64,000 nt of DNA from an uncultured Candidatus Saccharibacteria bacterium (GTDB lineage: Bacteria > Patescibacteriota > Minisyncoccia > Phycocordibacterales > WO2-35-19), in NCBI GenBank assembly GCA_964548205.1, contig CAZJPJ010000004.1, positions 21,577 to 85,576 of the forward strand, in the 5' to 3' direction. The first letter of the stretch is position 1, and each line of letters starts with the position of its first letter. Below, piece by piece: positions 17,499-56,994 of the stretch. The translations under genes and the position numbers were made by a program. The notes under the pieces were generated by a model. That model had not been told where the DNA came from and did no database searches. It saw only the letters and a program-made list of their open reading frames with translations.

Positions 17499-17906
17499 CT
17501 AATTATTTATATAAGTTATGGTCAACTGTAAGCAAGTAGCAAAAGTCACCCAAAGAAGATATGGGATATTGGCATAAACCACCCACCGAAGTGAAGCTGA
17601 TGAGTGCCATGCAGTATAAAGCGCCCAGACAAGAGTAATAAGAACAGCTAAAATATCGATAGAGGCTAGAAGGTTGTTTTTGAGGCCAAACTGTATCGGA
17701 GTAAAGGCAAAATTAAACACAAGATTGAGAGCAAACGGCAAAACTGTAATCAGTGGGATTTGTCTTGTAAAAGCTTTATAGAAAACTGTACCGAAGGATA
17801 TGGCGATAATAGCGTACAACAATGTCCATACCGGCCCAAAAACCCACGATGGCGGCGCCCAACTCGGCCTCAACAAAGCTTGATATGACTCATAGTTGTT
17901 TTCCAT
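17499..17906 (-). CDS. tspO: TspO/MBR family tryptophan-rich sensory protein
   Basis: LRPSWAPPSWVFGPVWTLLY motif and 5 TM helices. Confidence 0.7.
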   Translation of the reverse strand: MENNYESYQALLRPSWAPPSWVFGPVWTLLYAIIAISFGTVFYKAFTRQIPLITVLPFALNLVFNFAFTPIQFGLKNNLLASIDILAVLITLVWALYTAWHSSASLRWVVYANIPYLLWVTFATCLQLTITYINN

Positions 17907-17947
17907 ACCAAAATCATCTCATTTTTTGATAAAAAAAGAAAACTTTG

Positions 17948-18020
17948 CTCCGCGGGTAGGATTCGAACCTACGACCAACCCGTTAACAGCGGGCCGCTCT
18001 ACCAGCTGAGCTACCGCGGA
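17948..18020 (-). tRNA. tRNA-Asn (anticodon GTT)
   Basis: Minus-strand cloverleaf TCCGCGGTAGCTCAGCTGGTAGAGC...CTGTTAA...GGTTCGAATCC...CCGCGGAG. No encoded CCA. Confidence 0.85.
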
Positions 18021-18045
18021 ATAATGAATATTTAAAATAATTTTT

Positions 18046-18087
18046 CCCGCTCTACCATCCGCCAGCTGGCGGAGAGCTACCGCGGAA
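18046..18087 (-). repeat. partial copy of the tRNA-Asn 5' end (acceptor plus D-arm) with a 16-nt palindrome inserted in the D-loop, 25 nt upstream of the intact tRNA
   Basis: TCCGCGGTAGCTC [TCCGCCAGCTGGCGGA] TGGTAGAGCGGG compared with the tRNA's own positions 1-27. Confidence 0.6.
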
Positions 18088-18299
18088 TAAATTTTTTAAC
18101 GAACTCTCTGCCCCTAAAACTTTGCGATCACTTTTTCGATCTCTATAGGGCAACCCAAAAAGAATAGCAAAAAAAATAGTGGTAGTAAATATATCGCTAG
18201 CCGTCTTTCCCAAAGACTATATTTGTGGTACAATTCTTCCAGACAAAAGATCGGGTCGGCTGCTATCCCGACCTAACCAAGTTACCGGAAGGAGAGAAA

Positions 18300-22024: not shown

Positions 22025-22064
22025 CCCCTCCCCTGATCAAGGGGAGGGGGTTGGGGGTGGGGTT
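22025..22064. repeat. GC-rich palindromic repeat element, copy A (CCCCTCCCCTGATCAAGGGGAGGGG plus a G-tract), lying just 3' of the ClpC-like gene and probably acting as its terminator
   Basis: Perfect 9 bp arms around TGATCAA. A near-identical copy lies at 29741..29784. Confidence 0.7.
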
Positions 22065-27093: not shown

Positions 27094-28050
27094 ATGACAT
27101 ACACAATCCAAAAAATGTTGCCCACGGATTGGCCCCCTCTGCTTCAAGCAATCAACGACCCGCCTAAAAAACTTTTTTATGCAGGCAGAATACCTGATTA
27201 TGAGAGAAAATTTTTGTGCGTTGTGGGTAGTAGAAAATATACAAACTACGGTAAAGAAGCTGTCACTTCGATCATCTCCGACTTGCAGGGGTATCCAGTG
27301 ACAATAGTTTCTGGTCTTGCTTATGGTATCGACGCTCTAGCACACCGTAGCGCTATGAAGTTTGGCTTGCCCACGATCGCCGTACCGGGGTCGGGACTTT
27401 CAAGAGAAGTCTTACACCCTAGTGCTCATGCCGGCTTAGCAGAAGAGATAGTGGCAAGCGGTGGGACTCTACTTTCAGAATACGATAGCGATTTCAAAGC
27501 TACCCAATGGAGCTTCCCTCTGCGCAATCGGATCATGGCCGGCATGTCTGTCGCCACCCTCATTATAGAAGCAGAAGAAAAGAGCGGCACCATGATTACA
27601 GCCAAATTGACTACCGAATACAACCGCGATTTGCTCGCCATACCCGGCAGCATTTTCTCACCATCTTCAGACGGACCAAATATGTTTATACGTCTTGGGG
27701 CTACTCTAGTAAGAAATGGGGGTGATGTATTAGAAGCTTTGGGGATAGGAAGGATGAAGTTCAAAGTAGAAAGCGAAAAGTCAGAAAATAAAAATGGATC
27801 ACAAATTTCAGAAAGAAAAGAAGTTGGAGAAGAACACTTGGATAAATATTTGAAAGAAAAGTATCAGGACTGCGGAGAAAACGAGCTAGTACTAATAAAA
27901 ATATTGATAAAAGAAAACAAGCCCCGCGACGAACTCGTTCGTCGCGGGGCCGACTCCGGCCTCTCCATCTCCGACATCCAAACTTCTCTCACCCTCCTCG
28001 AACTCAAAGGCCATATCGAAGAAAAACTCGGAGAAGTAAGGCTTATATAG
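27094..28050 (+). CDS. dprA: DNA processing protein DprA (Smf)
   Basis: VVGSRKYTNYGKEA...VSGLAYGIDALAHRSA...FPLRNRIMAGMS...EAEEKSGTMITA. The C-terminal wHTH-like tail contains an in-frame 30-nt perfect palindrome. Confidence 0.85.
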   Translation: MTYTIQKMLPTDWPPLLQAINDPPKKLFYAGRIPDYERKFLCVVGSRKYTNYGKEAVTSIISDLQGYPVTIVSGLAYGIDALAHRSAMKFGLPTIAVPGSGLSREVLHPSAHAGLAEEIVASGGTLLSEYDSDFKATQWSFPLRNRIMAGMSVATLIIEAEEKSGTMITAKLTTEYNRDLLAIPGSIFSPSSDGPNMFIRLGATLVRNGGDVLEALGIGRMKFKVESEKSENKNGSQISERKEVGEEHLDKYLKEKYQDCGENELVLIKILIKENKPRDELVRRGADSGLSISDIQTSLTLLELKGHIEEKLGEVRLI

Positions 28051-28237: not shown

Positions 28238-28272
28238 CCCCGACCGTCACAAGTCGGGGGTTGCTTTTTTAT
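28238..28272 (+). terminator. intrinsic terminator
   Basis: ccccgac-cgtcacaa-gtcgggg followed by ttgctttttta. Confidence 0.55.
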
Positions 28273-28280
28273 ACAGAGTG

Positions 28281-28289
28281 TGATATAAT
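28281..28289 (+). promoter_or_regulatory. extended -10 promoter element (TGaTATAAT)
   Basis: tgatataat lies 26 nt upstream of the ATG at 28315. Confidence 0.4.
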
Positions 28290-28314
28290 CAAAAATGGAA
28301 AGGAAACCTCAATC

Positions 28315-29740: not shown

Positions 29741-29784
29741 CCCCCCTCTCCTGATCAAGGGGAGGGGTTGGGGGGTGGGGTTTT
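29741..29784. repeat. GC-rich palindromic repeat element, copy B
   Basis: ccccctctcctgatcaaggggaggggttggggggtggggtttt; near-identical to copy A at 22025. Confidence 0.7.
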
Positions 29785-35253: not shown

Positions 35254-35351
35254 GATAGACTAAATATTATCACAAAAACCTCTCTAATTTTTGATTTTAG
35301 TGGATATATAGAGTATATTTCTAAGTATAAAACACACAGGTGTTTTCAGTG

Positions 35352-35420
35352 CCGGAGTGGATCAAAAGCAAACTGCTTTGCTTTTGATCCGAAGCTTGCG
35401 TAGGTGGCCGACACTCCGGC
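35352..35420 (+). repeat. tRNA-Leu 5'-end copy (tgccggagtgg) plus a palindromic hairpin plus the complementary 3' arm (cactccggca), forming a tRNA-like minihelix in the -35 region of the tRNA-Leu gene
   Basis: 11 nt identical to the tRNA 5' end. Internal hairpin atcaaaagcaaactgctttgcttttgat. The terminal segment ccgacactccggca is complementary to the start. Confidence 0.5.
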
Positions 35421-35455
35421 ATGTATAATGAAAAAGCTACGCATGTTTTCATAAT

Positions 35456-35539
35456 GCCGGAGTGGCGGAATGGCAGACGCGCACGACTCAAAATCGTGTC
35501 TCGCAAGGGGTGTGGGTTCAAGTCCCACCTCCGGCACCA
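35456..35539 (+). tRNA. tRNA-Leu (anticodon CAA), class II, CCA encoded
   Basis: GCCGGAGTGGCGGAATGGCAGACGCGCACGACTCAAAATCGTG...GGGTTCAAGTCCCACCTCCGGCACCA; TATAAT at 35424. Confidence 0.85.
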
Positions 35540-45341: not shown

Positions 45342-45462
45342 AGATCACCTCTGCAACAAAACTAACATTTAAGGCCTGAATTTCCAAGTATCCTTATTAC
45401 AATAATATCAATATCCAGACTACTTTTATTTAATGATTTTTATGATAAAATCTGCATTATCG

Positions 45463-45511
45463 CGTCGGTGGTAGAGCTTGCCCCGCCACGGCGGGGTGAA
45501 GTCAATTACAA
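45463..45511 (+). repeat. tRNA-Tyr 5' fragment (positions 1-27) with a 25-nt GC hairpin inserted in the D-loop, immediately upstream of the GIY-YIG gene
   Basis: gcgtcggtggtagag [cttgccccgccacggcggggtgaag] tcaattacaa compared with the intact tRNA's gcgtcggtggtagagtggtcaattacaa. Confidence 0.65.
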
Positions 45512-45512
45512 T

Positions 45513-45755
45513 ATGTGGTATGTATATATTCTCAAAAGCTTGAAGGATGAAAAATACTATATAGGTTGTACAGATAATTTAGAGAGAAGAATTGATCAAC
45601 ACAACAGAGGAGAAAATTCATCGACTAGATTCCGGAGACCTTTTGAGTTAATCTATACAGAAACATACGCGAATAGCAGTATTGCTTATTCGAGAGAAAA
45701 GAAAATAAAAAGATACAAAGGTGGAAATACCTTTAGGAAATTGATAAGTAAATAA
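45513..45755 (+). CDS. GIY-YIG nuclease family protein (small, UPF0213/YhbQ-like)
   Basis: MWYVYILKSLKDEKYYIGCTDNLERRIDQHNRG, the GIY-YIG motif. The ATG at 45513 is preferred; the track ORF starts from an upstream GTG that lies inside the tRNA fragment. Confidence 0.7.
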   Translation: MWYVYILKSLKDEKYYIGCTDNLERRIDQHNRGENSSTRFRRPFELIYTETYANSSIAYSREKKIKRYKGGNTFRKLISK

Positions 45756-45756
45756 T

Positions 45757-45840
45757 GCGTCGGTGGTAGAGTGGTCAATTACAACAGACTGTAAATCTGT
45801 CGGCCTTAGGCCTACGCAGGTTCGAATCCTGCCCGGCGCA
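45757..45840 (+). tRNA. tRNA-Tyr (anticodon GTA), class II long variable arm
   Basis: GCGTCGGTGGTAGAGTGGTCAATTACAACAGACTGTAAATCTGTCGGCCTTAGGCCTACGCAGGTTCGAATCCTGCCCGGCGCA. Confidence 0.85.
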
Positions 45841-46037
45841 CAGCGCAAAACAAAACAAAAACAGGATAAATGCCTGTTTTTGTTTTCGTGCCTATGCACG
45901 AGGGAGGATTCGAAAGCCGGAGGGCACGGAGCGAAGCGAAGTCCGAACTTAGCAAAGTTCGGGCCCGAGGTGGGGTCGCGGAAAATTATTTTTGACGAAA
46001 AATAATTTATCTGTGACCGAATCCTGCCCGGCGCACA
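45823..46037 (+). mobile_element. att-like structure: a 20-nt direct repeat of the tRNA-Tyr 3' end (cgaatcctgcccggcgcaca) bounding a roughly 175 bp hairpin-rich segment; remnant of an element integrated at the tRNA 3' end
   Basis: Identical 20-mers at 45823..45842 and 46018..46037; internal palindromes (acaaaaacagg...cctgtttttgt and aaaattattttt-gacg-aaaaataatttt). Confidence 0.55.
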
Positions 46038-52980: not shown

Positions 52981-53296
52981 GTCCGCTCAGAGGGAATCGG
53001 TCACGAGTTCCTTCGCCAAGCTCAGGACTCTCGACCCCAGCTCGCCCGTCTCGCTTTGCTCGACATGGCTCCGCTTTTCGATTCCTCACGCAAGCAAAGC
53101 AGTTTGCTTGCTTTCGCGTCCAAACCGCTTCGCAACTTGTCCGCTCAGAGGGAATCGGTCACGAGTTCCTTCGCCAAGCTCAGGACTCTCGACCCCAGCT
53201 CGCCCGTCTCGCTTTGCTCGACATGGCTCCGCTTTTCGATTCCTCACGCAAGCAAAGCAGTTTGCTTGCTTTCGCGTCCAAACCGCTTCGCAACTT
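52981..53296. repeat. two tandem 158 bp repeat units, each beginning (in plus-strand view) with a 19-nt copy of the tRNA-Lys 3' end
   Basis: Units at 52981..53138 and 53139..53296 are essentially identical. Each starts gtccgctcagagggaatcg, the 3' end of tRNA-Lys. Each contains the hairpin gcaagcaaagcagtttgcttgc. Confidence 0.75.
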
Positions 53297-53297
53297 G

Positions 53298-53370
53298 TCC
53301 GCTCAGAGGGAATCGAACCCCCGACCATCTCCTTAAGAGGGAGCTGCTCTACCAGCTGAGCTATGAGCGG
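53298..53370 (-). tRNA. tRNA-Lys (anticodon CTT); the acceptor stem begins C1:G72
   Basis: CCGCTCATAGCTCAGCTGGTAGAGCAGCTCCCTCTTAAGGAGATGGTCGGGGGTTCGATTCCCTCTGAGCGGA. Confidence 0.75.
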
Positions 53371-54312: not shown

Positions 54313-54353
54313 GCCCACAAAAAAACACTCTTTCGGAGCGTTTTTTTGTGGGC
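54313..54353 (+). terminator. strong intrinsic terminator (17 bp stem with one mismatch)
   Basis: gcccacaaaaaaacactc-tttcg-gagcgtttttttgtgggc. Confidence 0.6.
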
Positions 54354-54444
54354 CATATTTTCATAAGCCGAATTCTGTTTTGATTGCAACAATTTATCTG
54401 GACTTAATATTACTATTAAGTTCTTGCGGCACTCCCCATGAGGT

Positions 54445-54800
54445 AATTTCGCAAAAGCTCACTATCTCACGGGGCACGGCCTTGCACAGAAGTAAGGATT
54501 TTGCCGTTTCAGCTTGGCATTGCTACCAAGACGTTCCGATCGCTTGGAACCCCTATTCTTTCGAAATCGGGCGTTTCTGTTCGCACCTCTTCCAATTTTG
54601 CCCACCGAAAGTGGTCGCAAAATTGAGAATCCGCCGAAGCTTTAGTGAAGGCGGAGACATTGTCTCAACTTTGTATTCACTTTCAGTGAACAAAACCAGA
54701 GACGGGTGTTACCCGCTACCCTGCTGCATATGAGGTGGCAAGATCTTGCGAGCTCCACCTCATATGCCTGTGTTCGGACTTTCCTCCACGTGAGATAACT
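54445..54800 (-). ncRNA. rnpB: RNase P RNA (bacterial type, reduced); antisense to track ORF 54380..54733
   Basis: The minus strand reads ...GGAGGAAAGUCCGAACACAGG... (P4 5' strand), ...CAGGGUAGCGGGUAACACCCG..., ...GAACAGAAACGCCCGAUU... (P4 3' strand-like). P1 pairing UAUCUCACGUGG/CCGUGAGAUAG spans about 54463..54797. The segment is GC-rich in an AT-rich context. Ends are approximate. Confidence 0.7.
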
Positions 54801-55041
54801 GCAAACTATCCTTCAACCGGGATTTTATATACCGTCTGCCCCAAGCAGTTTTAAGATACTTTTCTCTTTTTAGAGAATCTCTGCTACTTGAACAGGCTTC
54901 ATAATATACAAGTCTCCATGGCCCGCGGTTTTTTGTAGCAATAGACTTATTGTCGTTATGTTCTTTAAGTCTTCGCTTCAGATCAGAAGTATATCCGATA
55001 TAAAACTGCTTTGGGCCTTTGATTATGTATACGTAGTGCAT
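54760..55041 (-). CDS. GIY-YIG nuclease family protein (UPF0213/YhbQ-like), paralog 2; its 3' end overlaps the predicted 5' end of rnpB
   Basis: MHYVYIIKGPKQFYIGYTSDLKRRLKEHN. Confidence 0.65.
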   Translation of the reverse strand: MHYVYIIKGPKQFYIGYTSDLKRRLKEHNDNKSIATKNRGPWRLVYYEACSSSRDSLKREKYLKTAWGRRYIKSRLKDSLQLSHVEESPNTGI

Positions 55042-55177
55042 AATTTACAATTATCTCACGTGGCTGTTGCACGAAATATGGCCTGAAATATAGGTTATCA
55101 CACATTTCCCCAAAATTCAACATTTTGCTTGCATTTTCTATCATAATATGCTATAATAAAAGTAGGAGGTGGTCATA

Positions 55178-55630: not shown

Positions 55631-55639
55631 ACAAAAACC

Positions 55640-55668
55640 TTGCATTTTCCACCCTTTTGTGATATAAT
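55640..55668 (+). promoter_or_regulatory. sigma70-type promoter (TTGCAT, 17-nt spacer, TGtGATATAAT extended -10)
   Basis: ttgcat-tttccacccttttgtga-tataat. Confidence 0.5.
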
Positions 55669-55715
55669 AGAGGGTGGAAGTAGATCTTCTACAAATCTAT
55701 TTAGAGGCAACGAAA

Positions 55716-56852: not shown

Positions 56853-56994
56853 ACCCAAGCCCTGTTTAGGGCAAACCAACCCCCAAATGCATCGCTTTCA
56901 AGGCATAGCGTGAGGGGGTTGCTTTTTTATACGAAATGTGCTATAATATAAATAGGTCTGTGTACAATAACAATTGCATAAGGAGACGAAGGAA

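Follow-up and report, generated by a model that had tools for sequence, protein, structure and literature searches.

Interrupted tRNA copies in a Saccharibacteria contig

We analysed a 64-kb stretch of DNA from an uncultured Candidatus Saccharibacteria bacterium (contig CAZJPJ010000004.1; hereafter, the window, with positions counted from its first nucleotide), in which tRNA genes are accompanied by partial copies of themselves and, in one case, also by a gene for a very small GIY-YIG nuclease. The tRNA genes were called with ARAGORN, and every tRNA was compared with the whole window by a k-mer search for self-copies. Eight tRNA genes were identified. Three of them are preceded by fragments of their own 5′ part that are broken by palindromes. 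This is the number given in an earlier note on this DNA, which described two of them (tRNA-Asn and tRNA-Leu(CAA)); the third proved to be tRNA-Tyr. Four of the eight (tRNA-Trp, tRNA-Cys, tRNA-Leu(TAA) and tRNA-Leu(TAG)) have no copy of any kind.

The complete arrangement is found at tRNA-Tyr, on the plus strand. A pseudo-tRNA-Tyr (45462-45511) consists of tRNA positions 1-15 (45462-45476), a 24-nt hairpin insert (45477-45500; CTTG-CCCCGCC-ac-GGCGGGG-TGAA) and positions 18-28 (45501-45511), and lies 280 nt 5′ of the tRNA gene. It is followed by an open reading frame (ORF; 45513-45755) for an 80-residue GIY-YIG nuclease (Pfam PF01541, E = 1.5e-17) and by the intact tRNA-Tyr(GTA) (45757-45841), which starts 1 nt past the ORF stop codon. 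The three features are packed so tightly that a gap of only 1 nt is left on each side of the ORF. A homologous insert, CTTG-TCCCGCC-aga-GGCGGGA, occupies the same place in the D-loop in a locus from another genome (L001; loci outside the window are numbered in this way).

The encoded protein belongs to the UPF0213 (YhbQ/YazA)-SLX1 branch of GIY-YIG proteins and consists of the catalytic domain only. It has the GIY...YIG motifs and the Arg, His and Glu residues, and a profile of its relatives matched UPF0213 structures best (1ZG2, 4.5e-15; 1YWL, 1.1e-14), followed by SLX1 (2.5e-6), while reaching only 2.6e-3 for I-TevI. The residues invariant in the family are Y5, Y16, G18, R26, H30, E50 and E62, among them the catalytic Tyr, Tyr, Arg, His and Glu. 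Homing endonucleases of the Seg/I-TevI type join the catalytic domain to a separate DNA-binding domain and are ~200-250 residues long. We considered this type for the ORF and rejected it, as the protein has 80 residues with the catalytic domain only and scores 20.5 bits against TIGR01453, for which the cut-off is 56.

On the minus strand, the intact tRNA-Asn(GTT) (17947-18020; 70.8 bits for the Rfam tRNA family) is preceded by a similar structure that has no ORF. Its first block (TCCGCGGTAGCTC, 18086-18074) is an exact copy of tRNA positions 1-13 and is extended by TTAT (18074-18090 in all), the same 4 nt that also precede the real tRNA-Asn. D-loop bases 14-16 are replaced by a perfect 16-nt palindrome, TCCGCCAGCTGGCGGA (18073-18058), to which no strand is assigned. 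The second block, TGGTAGAGCGG (18057-18047), is an exact copy of positions 17-27 according to the k-mer comparison, and a 26-nt AT-rich spacer (18021-18046) separates it from the tRNA gene. The upstream structure folds stably (z = -3.3). The copy of positions 1-13 and the palindrome had been described correctly in the earlier note, whereas the second block starts at position 17 rather than 16 and the spacer measures 26 rather than 25 nt. That the pattern exceeds chance was also borne out: besides the exact 13- and 11-mers, the pattern CCGCCNNNNGGCGG (CCGCC-N4-GGCGG) has a single match in the 64 kb, the pseudo-tRNA-Asn palindrome itself, against 0.01 expected from shuffled sequences. This palindrome is a member of a hairpin family that can be written as YCC(C)GCC-loop-GGCGG(G)R, and its stem, TCCGCC/GGCGGA, is also present beside GIY-YIG ORFs in L066 and L080.

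A contig of the Logan assembly SRR15237813 (L099) ends inside tRNA-Asn, 69 nt from a TspO-family gene. It encodes a protein identical to the product of the window ORF 17499-17906 and probably represents the same or a very closely related organism. Short-read assemblies are probably broken at this tRNA by the pseudo-copy repeat.

Occupied and empty sites and their distribution among genomes

When metagenomes were scanned with the tRNA-Asn sequence, 12 loci with essentially the same tRNA-Asn were retrieved. Eleven of them have no upstream self-copy. The exception, L092, has both a copy and a nuclease ORF, and the ORF lies between the copy and the tRNA, at the place taken in the window by the spacer 18021-18046. 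The order in this occupied locus is a -10 box (GGTATACT), TCCGCGGTA, a 20-nt palindrome, GCTCAGTGGT-gaggcgg, the GIY-YIG ORF (tblastn E = 5e-24 to the family) and the intact tRNA-Asn. In two empty loci, L091 and L087, the same promoter leads straight into tRNA-Asn. By pairwise global alignment, the upstream 50 nt of L091 are identical at 41 of 50 positions to the sequence upstream of the L092 pseudo-copy, as against 8 of 50 for the sequence upstream of the L092 tRNA. The native promoter has therefore remained with the displaced 5′ copy, and it is between this copy and the tRNA that the insertion is found. At the window tRNA-Tyr, too, the native promoter is probably located 5′ of the pseudo-copy. 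Presence and absence of the element are polymorphic at this one orthologous site (L092 occupied; L091 and L087 empty). The structure at 18046-18090 of the window would be the same pseudo-arm without its ORF, either a remnant from which the ORF was lost or a non-autonomous form, because the duplication ends near position 26-28 in L092 as well as in the Asn and Tyr copies of the window.

One genome per species was scanned for relatives of the ORF with an 8-sequence subset of a 26-sequence alignment. The scan yielded 218 relatives; 80 loci were read, and 74 of these were non-redundant and had enough flanking sequence. They come from Patescibacteria, Bacteroidota, Ignavibacteria and other groups, and involve at least 13 tRNA identities. 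In 53 of the 74 loci the endonuclease ORF stands directly at a conserved host gene, as it does 1 nt from the window tRNA-Tyr: a same-strand tRNA abuts the ORF within 100 nt downstream in 39 loci and only upstream in 14. Part of the host gene is duplicated, so that an intact copy and a dead, displaced copy flank the ORF. At loci with a downstream tRNA, 8-mers of the cognate tRNA cover at least 15 nt of the 170 nt upstream of the ORF in 30 of 37 cases, compared with 7.7% of non-cognate controls. Bacteroidota have the reverse order: intact tRNA-Pro is followed by the ORF and a full-length tRNA-Pro copy, the D-arm of which, and sometimes the T-arm too, is swapped for CCCCGCC-loop-GGCGGGG. Of the 14 loci with the reverse order, 10 carry the copy. 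At least one stringent GC hairpin is present in 24 of 35 upstream tRNA copies; most of the rest are of the Bacteroidota type, in which the hairpin resides in the other copy.

The nearest homologues of the ORF are mostly from Patescibacteria. In the Adlerbacteria contigs L001-L004, it lies between a tRNA-Tyr 5′ copy with three GC hairpins and the intact tRNA-Tyr, and L005 has the same layout at tRNA-Ser(GGA). The ORF is 58-60% identical to Bacteroidota copies and 59-61% identical to Patescibacteria copies; this equality across phyla and within the group suggests horizontal spread. As many as 10,480 clusters at 50% identity score E <= 1e-10 with the ORF profile, which makes this a large family, and a scan of viral contigs found no relatives there.

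The earlier note had argued for a systematic process, namely an element targeting the D-arm regions of tRNAs or else a conserved regulatory or processing structure. The distribution speaks for the former, since the pattern is a companion of the GIY-YIG ORF in dozens of unrelated genomes, and not for the latter, as 11 of the 12 tRNA-Asn loci do without it. The note had also proposed that absence of such copies at other tRNAs would reduce them to coincidence. They are indeed patchy within the genome (missing at four of the eight tRNAs), yet systematic across genomes; because patchiness is expected of a mobile element, the proposal does not apply as worded.

Reading of the loci brought several further observations. 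In L036, L065, L053, L072, L012 and L005, a single tRNA cluster may contain two or three of the GIY-YIG ORFs or truncated pieces of them, and in L012 units of an ORF and a hairpin-bearing tRNA-Pro copy form a tandem array. ARAGORN calls hairpin-bearing copies of Bacteroidota, in which the D-arm has become an 8-bp GC stem, ordinary tRNA-Pro genes (for example, at L012 398-474, L018, L029-L031, L043 and L046), so that the number of tRNA-Pro genes in genome annotations may be too high. Gene callers also add 20-55 residues to many of the nuclease ORFs by reading through the pseudo-tRNA.

The conserved hairpin and related structures

The hairpins that interrupt the copies are specific to these elements. 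Within 170 nt of the ORFs their density (counting all GC hairpins) is 2.70 per kb, against 0.25 per kb elsewhere, which denotes the remaining 177 kb of these loci, ordinary intergenic DNA included. CCCGC-type hairpins make up 52 of the 79 near ORFs and 8 of the 44 elsewhere, a ~39-fold difference per kb, and the reversed arm order was seen in one of the 79. The stems are near-invariant (CCCCGCC, TCCCGCC or CCCCGC) and the loops vary freely, even between related elements. There are also compensatory changes: the outermost stem pair covaries, being C:G (59) or T:A (26), and its Watson-Crick fraction is 0.63, whereas shuffles reached 0.46 at most. Two tRNA-Ser copies carry homologous inserts, CCTG-CCCCGCC and CCTG-TCCCGCC, at the same D-loop position. 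Such strict conservation of the stem suggests recognition by some factor, possibly the nuclease itself. The many intergenic copies per genome that characterize dispersed mobile hairpins were not found in these partial genomes, given one match in the 64 kb and the ~39-fold density near ORFs. Most hairpins are located in the D-loop or D-arm, though sometimes they replace the anticodon arm or T arm, and a copy holds one to three of them. A different palindrome, CCTGCCTGCCGGCAGGCAGG, is used in L081, L085 and L092. At mismatched stem positions we saw no bias of G:T over A:C, which is a weak test, and so nothing points to selection as sense-strand RNA. No simple link was seen between hairpin type and the C-terminal protein subtypes (IKxYKGG and KxGxGR).

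At tRNA-Leu(CAA) (35456-35539, plus strand; ARAGORN and Rfam), the k-mer comparison and folding revealed a more decayed, ORF-less pseudo-tRNA (35351-35421, plus strand). It begins with GCCGGAGTGG (35351-35360), a copy of tRNA positions 1-10, and continues with a 13-bp hairpin, GATCAAAAGCAAA-ctgc-TTTGCTTTTGATC (35360-35389), and a 22-nt filler. Next comes CACTCCGGC (35412-35420); it is exactly complementary to 35351-35359 and also copies the 3′ acceptor strand of the tRNA. The acceptor strand copy itself, CTCCGGCA, spans 35414-35421, and the two ends of the element pair over 9 bp. The fold has an energy of -37.5 kcal/mol (z = -5.0), and an extended -10 element, TGTATAAT (35422-35429), follows immediately 3′ of this minihelix. 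The 5′ end copy, the hairpin and the exact acceptor complement had all been recognized in the earlier note, but the copy is 10 nt long (11 with the preceding T, which is shared) and the hairpin is larger than given there. The element resembles full-length pseudo-copies whose interior arms have been swapped for hairpins, such as that of L086. The 18-nt core of its hairpin, AAGCAAACTGCTTTGCTT, is identical in both repeat units following tRNA-Lys (see below), so the element belongs to the same local repeat family as those units. No ORF remnant was detected in it by tblastn (E <= 10).

A second kind of structure follows the 3′ ends of tRNA-Tyr and tRNA-Lys. In the tRNA-Tyr 3′ unit (45842-46036, plus strand), a terminator hairpin (45852-45886) is followed by an inverted T-loop (AGGATTCGAA, 45905-45914) and a core; the last 19 nt of the tRNA (positions 67-85) are then repeated directly at 46018-46036, 176 nt downstream. 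After tRNA-Lys (53297-53370, minus strand) there are two identical 158-nt units in perfect tandem duplication (52981-53296), each with the AAGCAAACTGCTTTGCTT hairpin, an inverted T-loop (GGAATCGAA) and, at its end, a 19-nt copy of the tRNA 3′ end (positions 56-74). Units of this kind are also present in L001, L089 (two in tandem after tRNA-Asn) and L097. They are laid out alike: after a hairpin or terminator come an inverted copy of the T-loop or 3′ end of the tRNA concerned, a loosely conserved core and a direct copy of approximately positions 56-76. The inverted copy covaries with the cognate tRNA (GGATTCGAA vs GGAATCGAA); in L097 it matches at 19 of 19 nt, and in L001 a hairpin splits it. 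The breakpoints lie in the T-loop, where the Bacteroidota pseudo-copies hold their second hairpin. A three-way alignment of the units contains only one, loosely conserved block, G(T)GAGGA(T/A)TCGAAAGCGGAG. Searches with blastn and nhmmer found no clear homologues of the units in other loci beyond short words, and tblastn (E <= 10) found no ORF remnant in them.

Two observations concern individual 3′ units. In L097, ~40-60 nt after tRNA-Asn, the tRNA 3′ end, the terminator and the exact inverted copy form one ~35-bp palindrome centred on the terminator loop, and a diverged version of this arrangement is seen at the window tRNA-Tyr (45842-45930). In a read-through transcript, a palindrome of the L097 type would sequester the 3′ half of the tRNA. 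Within the tRNA-Tyr unit, CCCCACCTCGGGC (45963-45975, minus strand) corresponds to the 3′ end of tRNA-Leu(TAA), located 7 kb away, so that the unit may be a mosaic of fragments from several tRNAs.

The window contains a second GIY-YIG ORF of 93 residues (54760-55041, minus strand; tblastn E = 4.7e-17), and its host is the RNase P RNA gene (54344-55083, minus strand; Rfam RF00010, with the pairing read from the sequence). P1 is formed by GGCCATATTT (55083-55074) and AAATATGGCC (54360-54351), and a 13-bp P3 stem (55063-55051 with 54798-54786) encloses the ORF, which thus occupies the P3 loop; the P4 motif AGGAAAGTCCGAAC follows at 54785-54772. Because the ORF interrupts the gene, RF00010 scores only 50 bits, over the 3′ part (54344-54605), against a gathering score of 100. 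In L054 the ORF is likewise inside the RNase P RNA match, and in L055 it lies 107 nt after it. Around the three ORFs in or beside RNase P RNA genes (54760-55041 of the window, L054 and L055), there are no CCCGCC hairpins and nothing is duplicated. The hairpins therefore accompany the duplication of tRNAs, not the ORF as such.

Other repeats of the window were noted in passing. A 30-nt perfect palindrome, GCCCCGCGACGAACTCGTTCGTCGCGGGGC (27921-27950), lies within the mechanically defined ORF 27094-28050 and may mark the true end of the gene or be a palindromic insertion into coding sequence. A repeat of 40 nt (93% identical) at 22025-22064 and 29743-29782 consists of the hairpin CCCCTCCCCTGATCAAGGGGAGGGG followed by a G-run; it belongs to a different family and is found at gene boundaries. 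Blocks of ~40 nt at 55128-55170, 55639-55681, 56918-56960 and 28256-28294 contain TTGCAT/TTGCTT, a TATAAT box and a Shine-Dalgarno-like AGGAGG, and look like a reused promoter-leader cassette.

A putative selfish element and its closest analogues

We consider it likely that the palindrome-broken tRNA copies are the pseudo-tRNA arms of a selfish element, which is built around the tiny GIY-YIG gene and colonises structured-RNA genes. Such an element would duplicate part of the tRNA gene because sitting inside it would destroy the gene. In the Patescibacteria-type order, the native promoter is followed by the displaced 5′ part of the tRNA (usually to position ~26-28), the ORF and the intact tRNA. 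In the Bacteroidota-type order, the intact tRNA is followed by the ORF and the full-length copy. In both, the redundant copy is always the hairpin-broken one (YCCCGCC/GGCGGGR). By analogy with homing, the nuclease may cut unoccupied RNA genes, and repair would then copy the element in. The hairpins may break the redundant copy in such a way that it no longer serves as a nuclease target, recombines with the real tRNA or folds as a tRNA. Since a tRNA has no synonymous sites at which a duplicate could diverge, hairpin insertion may do that job.

A number of observations weigh against this explanation. The ORF protein has no DNA-binding domain, and no cleavage activity or target site is reported for its branch in the literature searched. 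In 21 of the 74 loci there is no adjacent tRNA. At an occupied site, the intact tRNA does not differ in sequence from that of empty sites, so the occupied allele would not be immune to a nuclease that reads the tRNA sequence alone; immunity would need recognition of the native 5′ flank, which does not agree with the Bacteroidota order. No single role of the hairpin fits both gene orders, and the idea that it counters recombination is weakened by up to 51 nt of unbroken identity between copies in Bacteroidota. ORF-less copies were found at 2 of 23 tRNAs far from ORFs, both in this window. For one of them, tRNA-Asn, the only ground for an ORF-bearing ancestry is homology of architecture: tblastn (E <= 10) detected no ORF remnant in its spacer, and its hairpin is unlike that of L092 in both position and sequence.

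A more specific role of the hairpin can also be imagined. It might be the specificity module of a nuclease devoid of its own DNA-binding domain, such that the SLX1-like GIY-YIG protein recognises YCCCGCC/GGCGGGR, either as a DNA cruciform or as pseudo-tRNA RNA, and the tRNA segments direct cutting or copy-in at the matching gene. We regard this as quite doubtful. If true, hairpin-guided homing would explain how one tiny family comes to reside at 13 or more tRNA identities, and also why the stem is conserved over phyla while loops and positions drift.

Alternatively, the hairpins could be an independent family of tiny mobile palindromes, comparable to mitochondrial GC clusters or repetitive hairpin elements, that enter any dispensable DNA and accumulate in pseudo-tRNA copies simply because these are unconstrained. 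Their position does vary (after position 7-9, in the D-loop, or in place of whole arms), several may be present in one copy, lineages differ in the palindrome used (CCTGCCTGCCGGCAGGCAGG in L081, L085 and L092), a 4-nt duplication (TCCA) flanks the hairpin in L045, and mobile hairpin elements are documented in mitochondria (PMC2800124). However, the density of CCCGC hairpins within 170 nt of the ORFs is ~39 times that of the other 177 kb; moreover, CCGCC-N4-GGCGG occurs once in 64 kb and the RNase P RNA ORFs have no hairpins around them. This alternative therefore seems unlikely. We find it very unlikely that the upstream structures are cis-acting regulatory or processing elements, such as leader hairpins, RNase P decoys or promoter-occluding minihelices. 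It is true that their folds are stable (z = -3.3 at Asn, -5.0 at Leu), that the Leu element abuts an extended -10, and that the promoter lies 5′ of the pseudo-copy in L092 and probably at the window tRNA-Tyr, so that the pseudo-copy is likely transcribed as a leader. Yet 11 of 12 loci with the same tRNA-Asn and four of the eight window tRNAs manage without the structure, the two Asn cases differ in hairpin position and sequence, there is no bias of G:T over A:C, and no Rfam family matches: searches at gathering and E-value thresholds returned only tRNAs and a weak RNase P match.

Prophages and genomic islands integrate at tRNA genes, and the fragments might be att-site remnants of such integrase-driven elements, but we judge this highly improbable. 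The direct 3′-end copies at tRNA-Tyr and tRNA-Lys do start in the T-loop (position 56), the classic location of the integrase crossover. The copies at Asn, Leu and Tyr, however, are 5′ copies, which are not an integrase product; the 3′ repeats enclose only 139-176 nt of non-coding DNA, with neither integrase nor cargo, and relatives of the ORF are absent from viral contigs. Hardly any credence can be given to the view that the copies were left by chance after local duplication or result from misassembly. The break of the independent assembly L099 inside tRNA-Asn does indicate that the locus is hard to assemble, but the 13- and 11-mers are exact, the palindrome motif is expected 0.01 times per window, and the same architecture is found in dozens of independent assemblies from different phyla.

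The tiny GIY-YIG proteins of UPF0213 form a very large family without an assigned role. Our results indicate that, in Patescibacteria, Bacteroidota and other phyla, a large branch of this family acts as a selfish element at tRNA and RNase P RNA genes. If true, the selfish-element explanation would account for recurrent tRNA pseudogenes, odd tRNA-Pro calls, over-extended N-termini and assembly breaks at tRNA genes. It would also show by what means a homing element can settle in a gene with neither synonymous sites nor tolerated loops, and the conserved 7-bp GC hairpin would offer a handle on target finding by a nuclease without a DNA-binding domain, with Bacteroides species as genetically tractable hosts. 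We found no description of this architecture in the full-text literature searched, which largely leaves out subscription journals, so that an earlier description is possible; there is no Rfam family for it either.

Of the related systems, GC-rich mobile hairpins of organelles, including yeast GC clusters, double-hairpin elements and the repetitive hairpin elements of sponges (PMC2800124), share several properties with the hairpins described here: they are short and GC-rich, their stems are conserved, with compensatory changes, and their loops vary; some stand in tandem, and RNA genes tolerate them. They are, however, dispersed intergenically, whereas the present hairpins are essentially confined to pseudo-tRNA copies by one ORF family. 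A different parallel is provided by phage T4, where a 50-nt insert in gene 60 travels with the homing endonuclease MobA and interrupts what would otherwise be its cleavage sequence. That insert resides in a functional gene and is bypassed by the ribosome, whereas here the insert is in a redundant copy and its protective role is hypothetical.

GIY-YIG ORFs have been described in rRNA genes of the Candidate Phyla Radiation (CPR), in non-intron insertions at the tips or bases of stem-loops; they are sparse and were considered probably not to spread by homing (PMC11270868). The host group, the nuclease superfamily and the location in structured-RNA genes are the same, and the ORF in the P3 loop of RNase P RNA matches these insertions. 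That study dealt with rRNA genes only, and no duplication or hairpin module is described there.

Among known systems, two come closest: mobile endonuclease ORFs of mitochondria (mORFs), by which a host-gene terminus is duplicated, and T4 SegB. SegB is a free-standing GIY-YIG homing endonuclease encoded in a tRNA gene cluster, which promotes its own inheritance by cutting the tRNA region of genomes lacking it (PMC2330249). As in our case, a GIY-YIG gene resides among tRNA genes. SegB has DNA-binding regions besides the catalytic domain. It is phage-borne and lacks a pseudo-tRNA copy or hairpin module, whereas the present family is not found in viral contigs and is closer to UPF0213/SLX1 than to I-TevI. 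The mORFs, known from Allomyces atp6 and from Glomus atp6, atp9, cox2 and nad3, produce hybrid genes with a duplicated terminus (PMC3630166). As at the tRNA loci, a free-standing ORF, of either LAGLIDADG or GIY-YIG type, enters an essential gene and brings a replacement end, so that the gene remains intact, the native end is left beside the ORF as a dead copy, and the distribution is patchy among close relatives. The differences are that the hosts are bacterial tRNA genes rather than mitochondrial protein genes, that usually the 5′ and not the 3′ end is duplicated, and that the copies are identical, the dead one being interrupted by conserved GC hairpins, instead of diverged at synonymous sites; in addition, the nuclease is an 80-residue UPF0213-type domain. 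We rate the architecture as that of a putative free-standing homing-endonuclease element with host-gene duplication.

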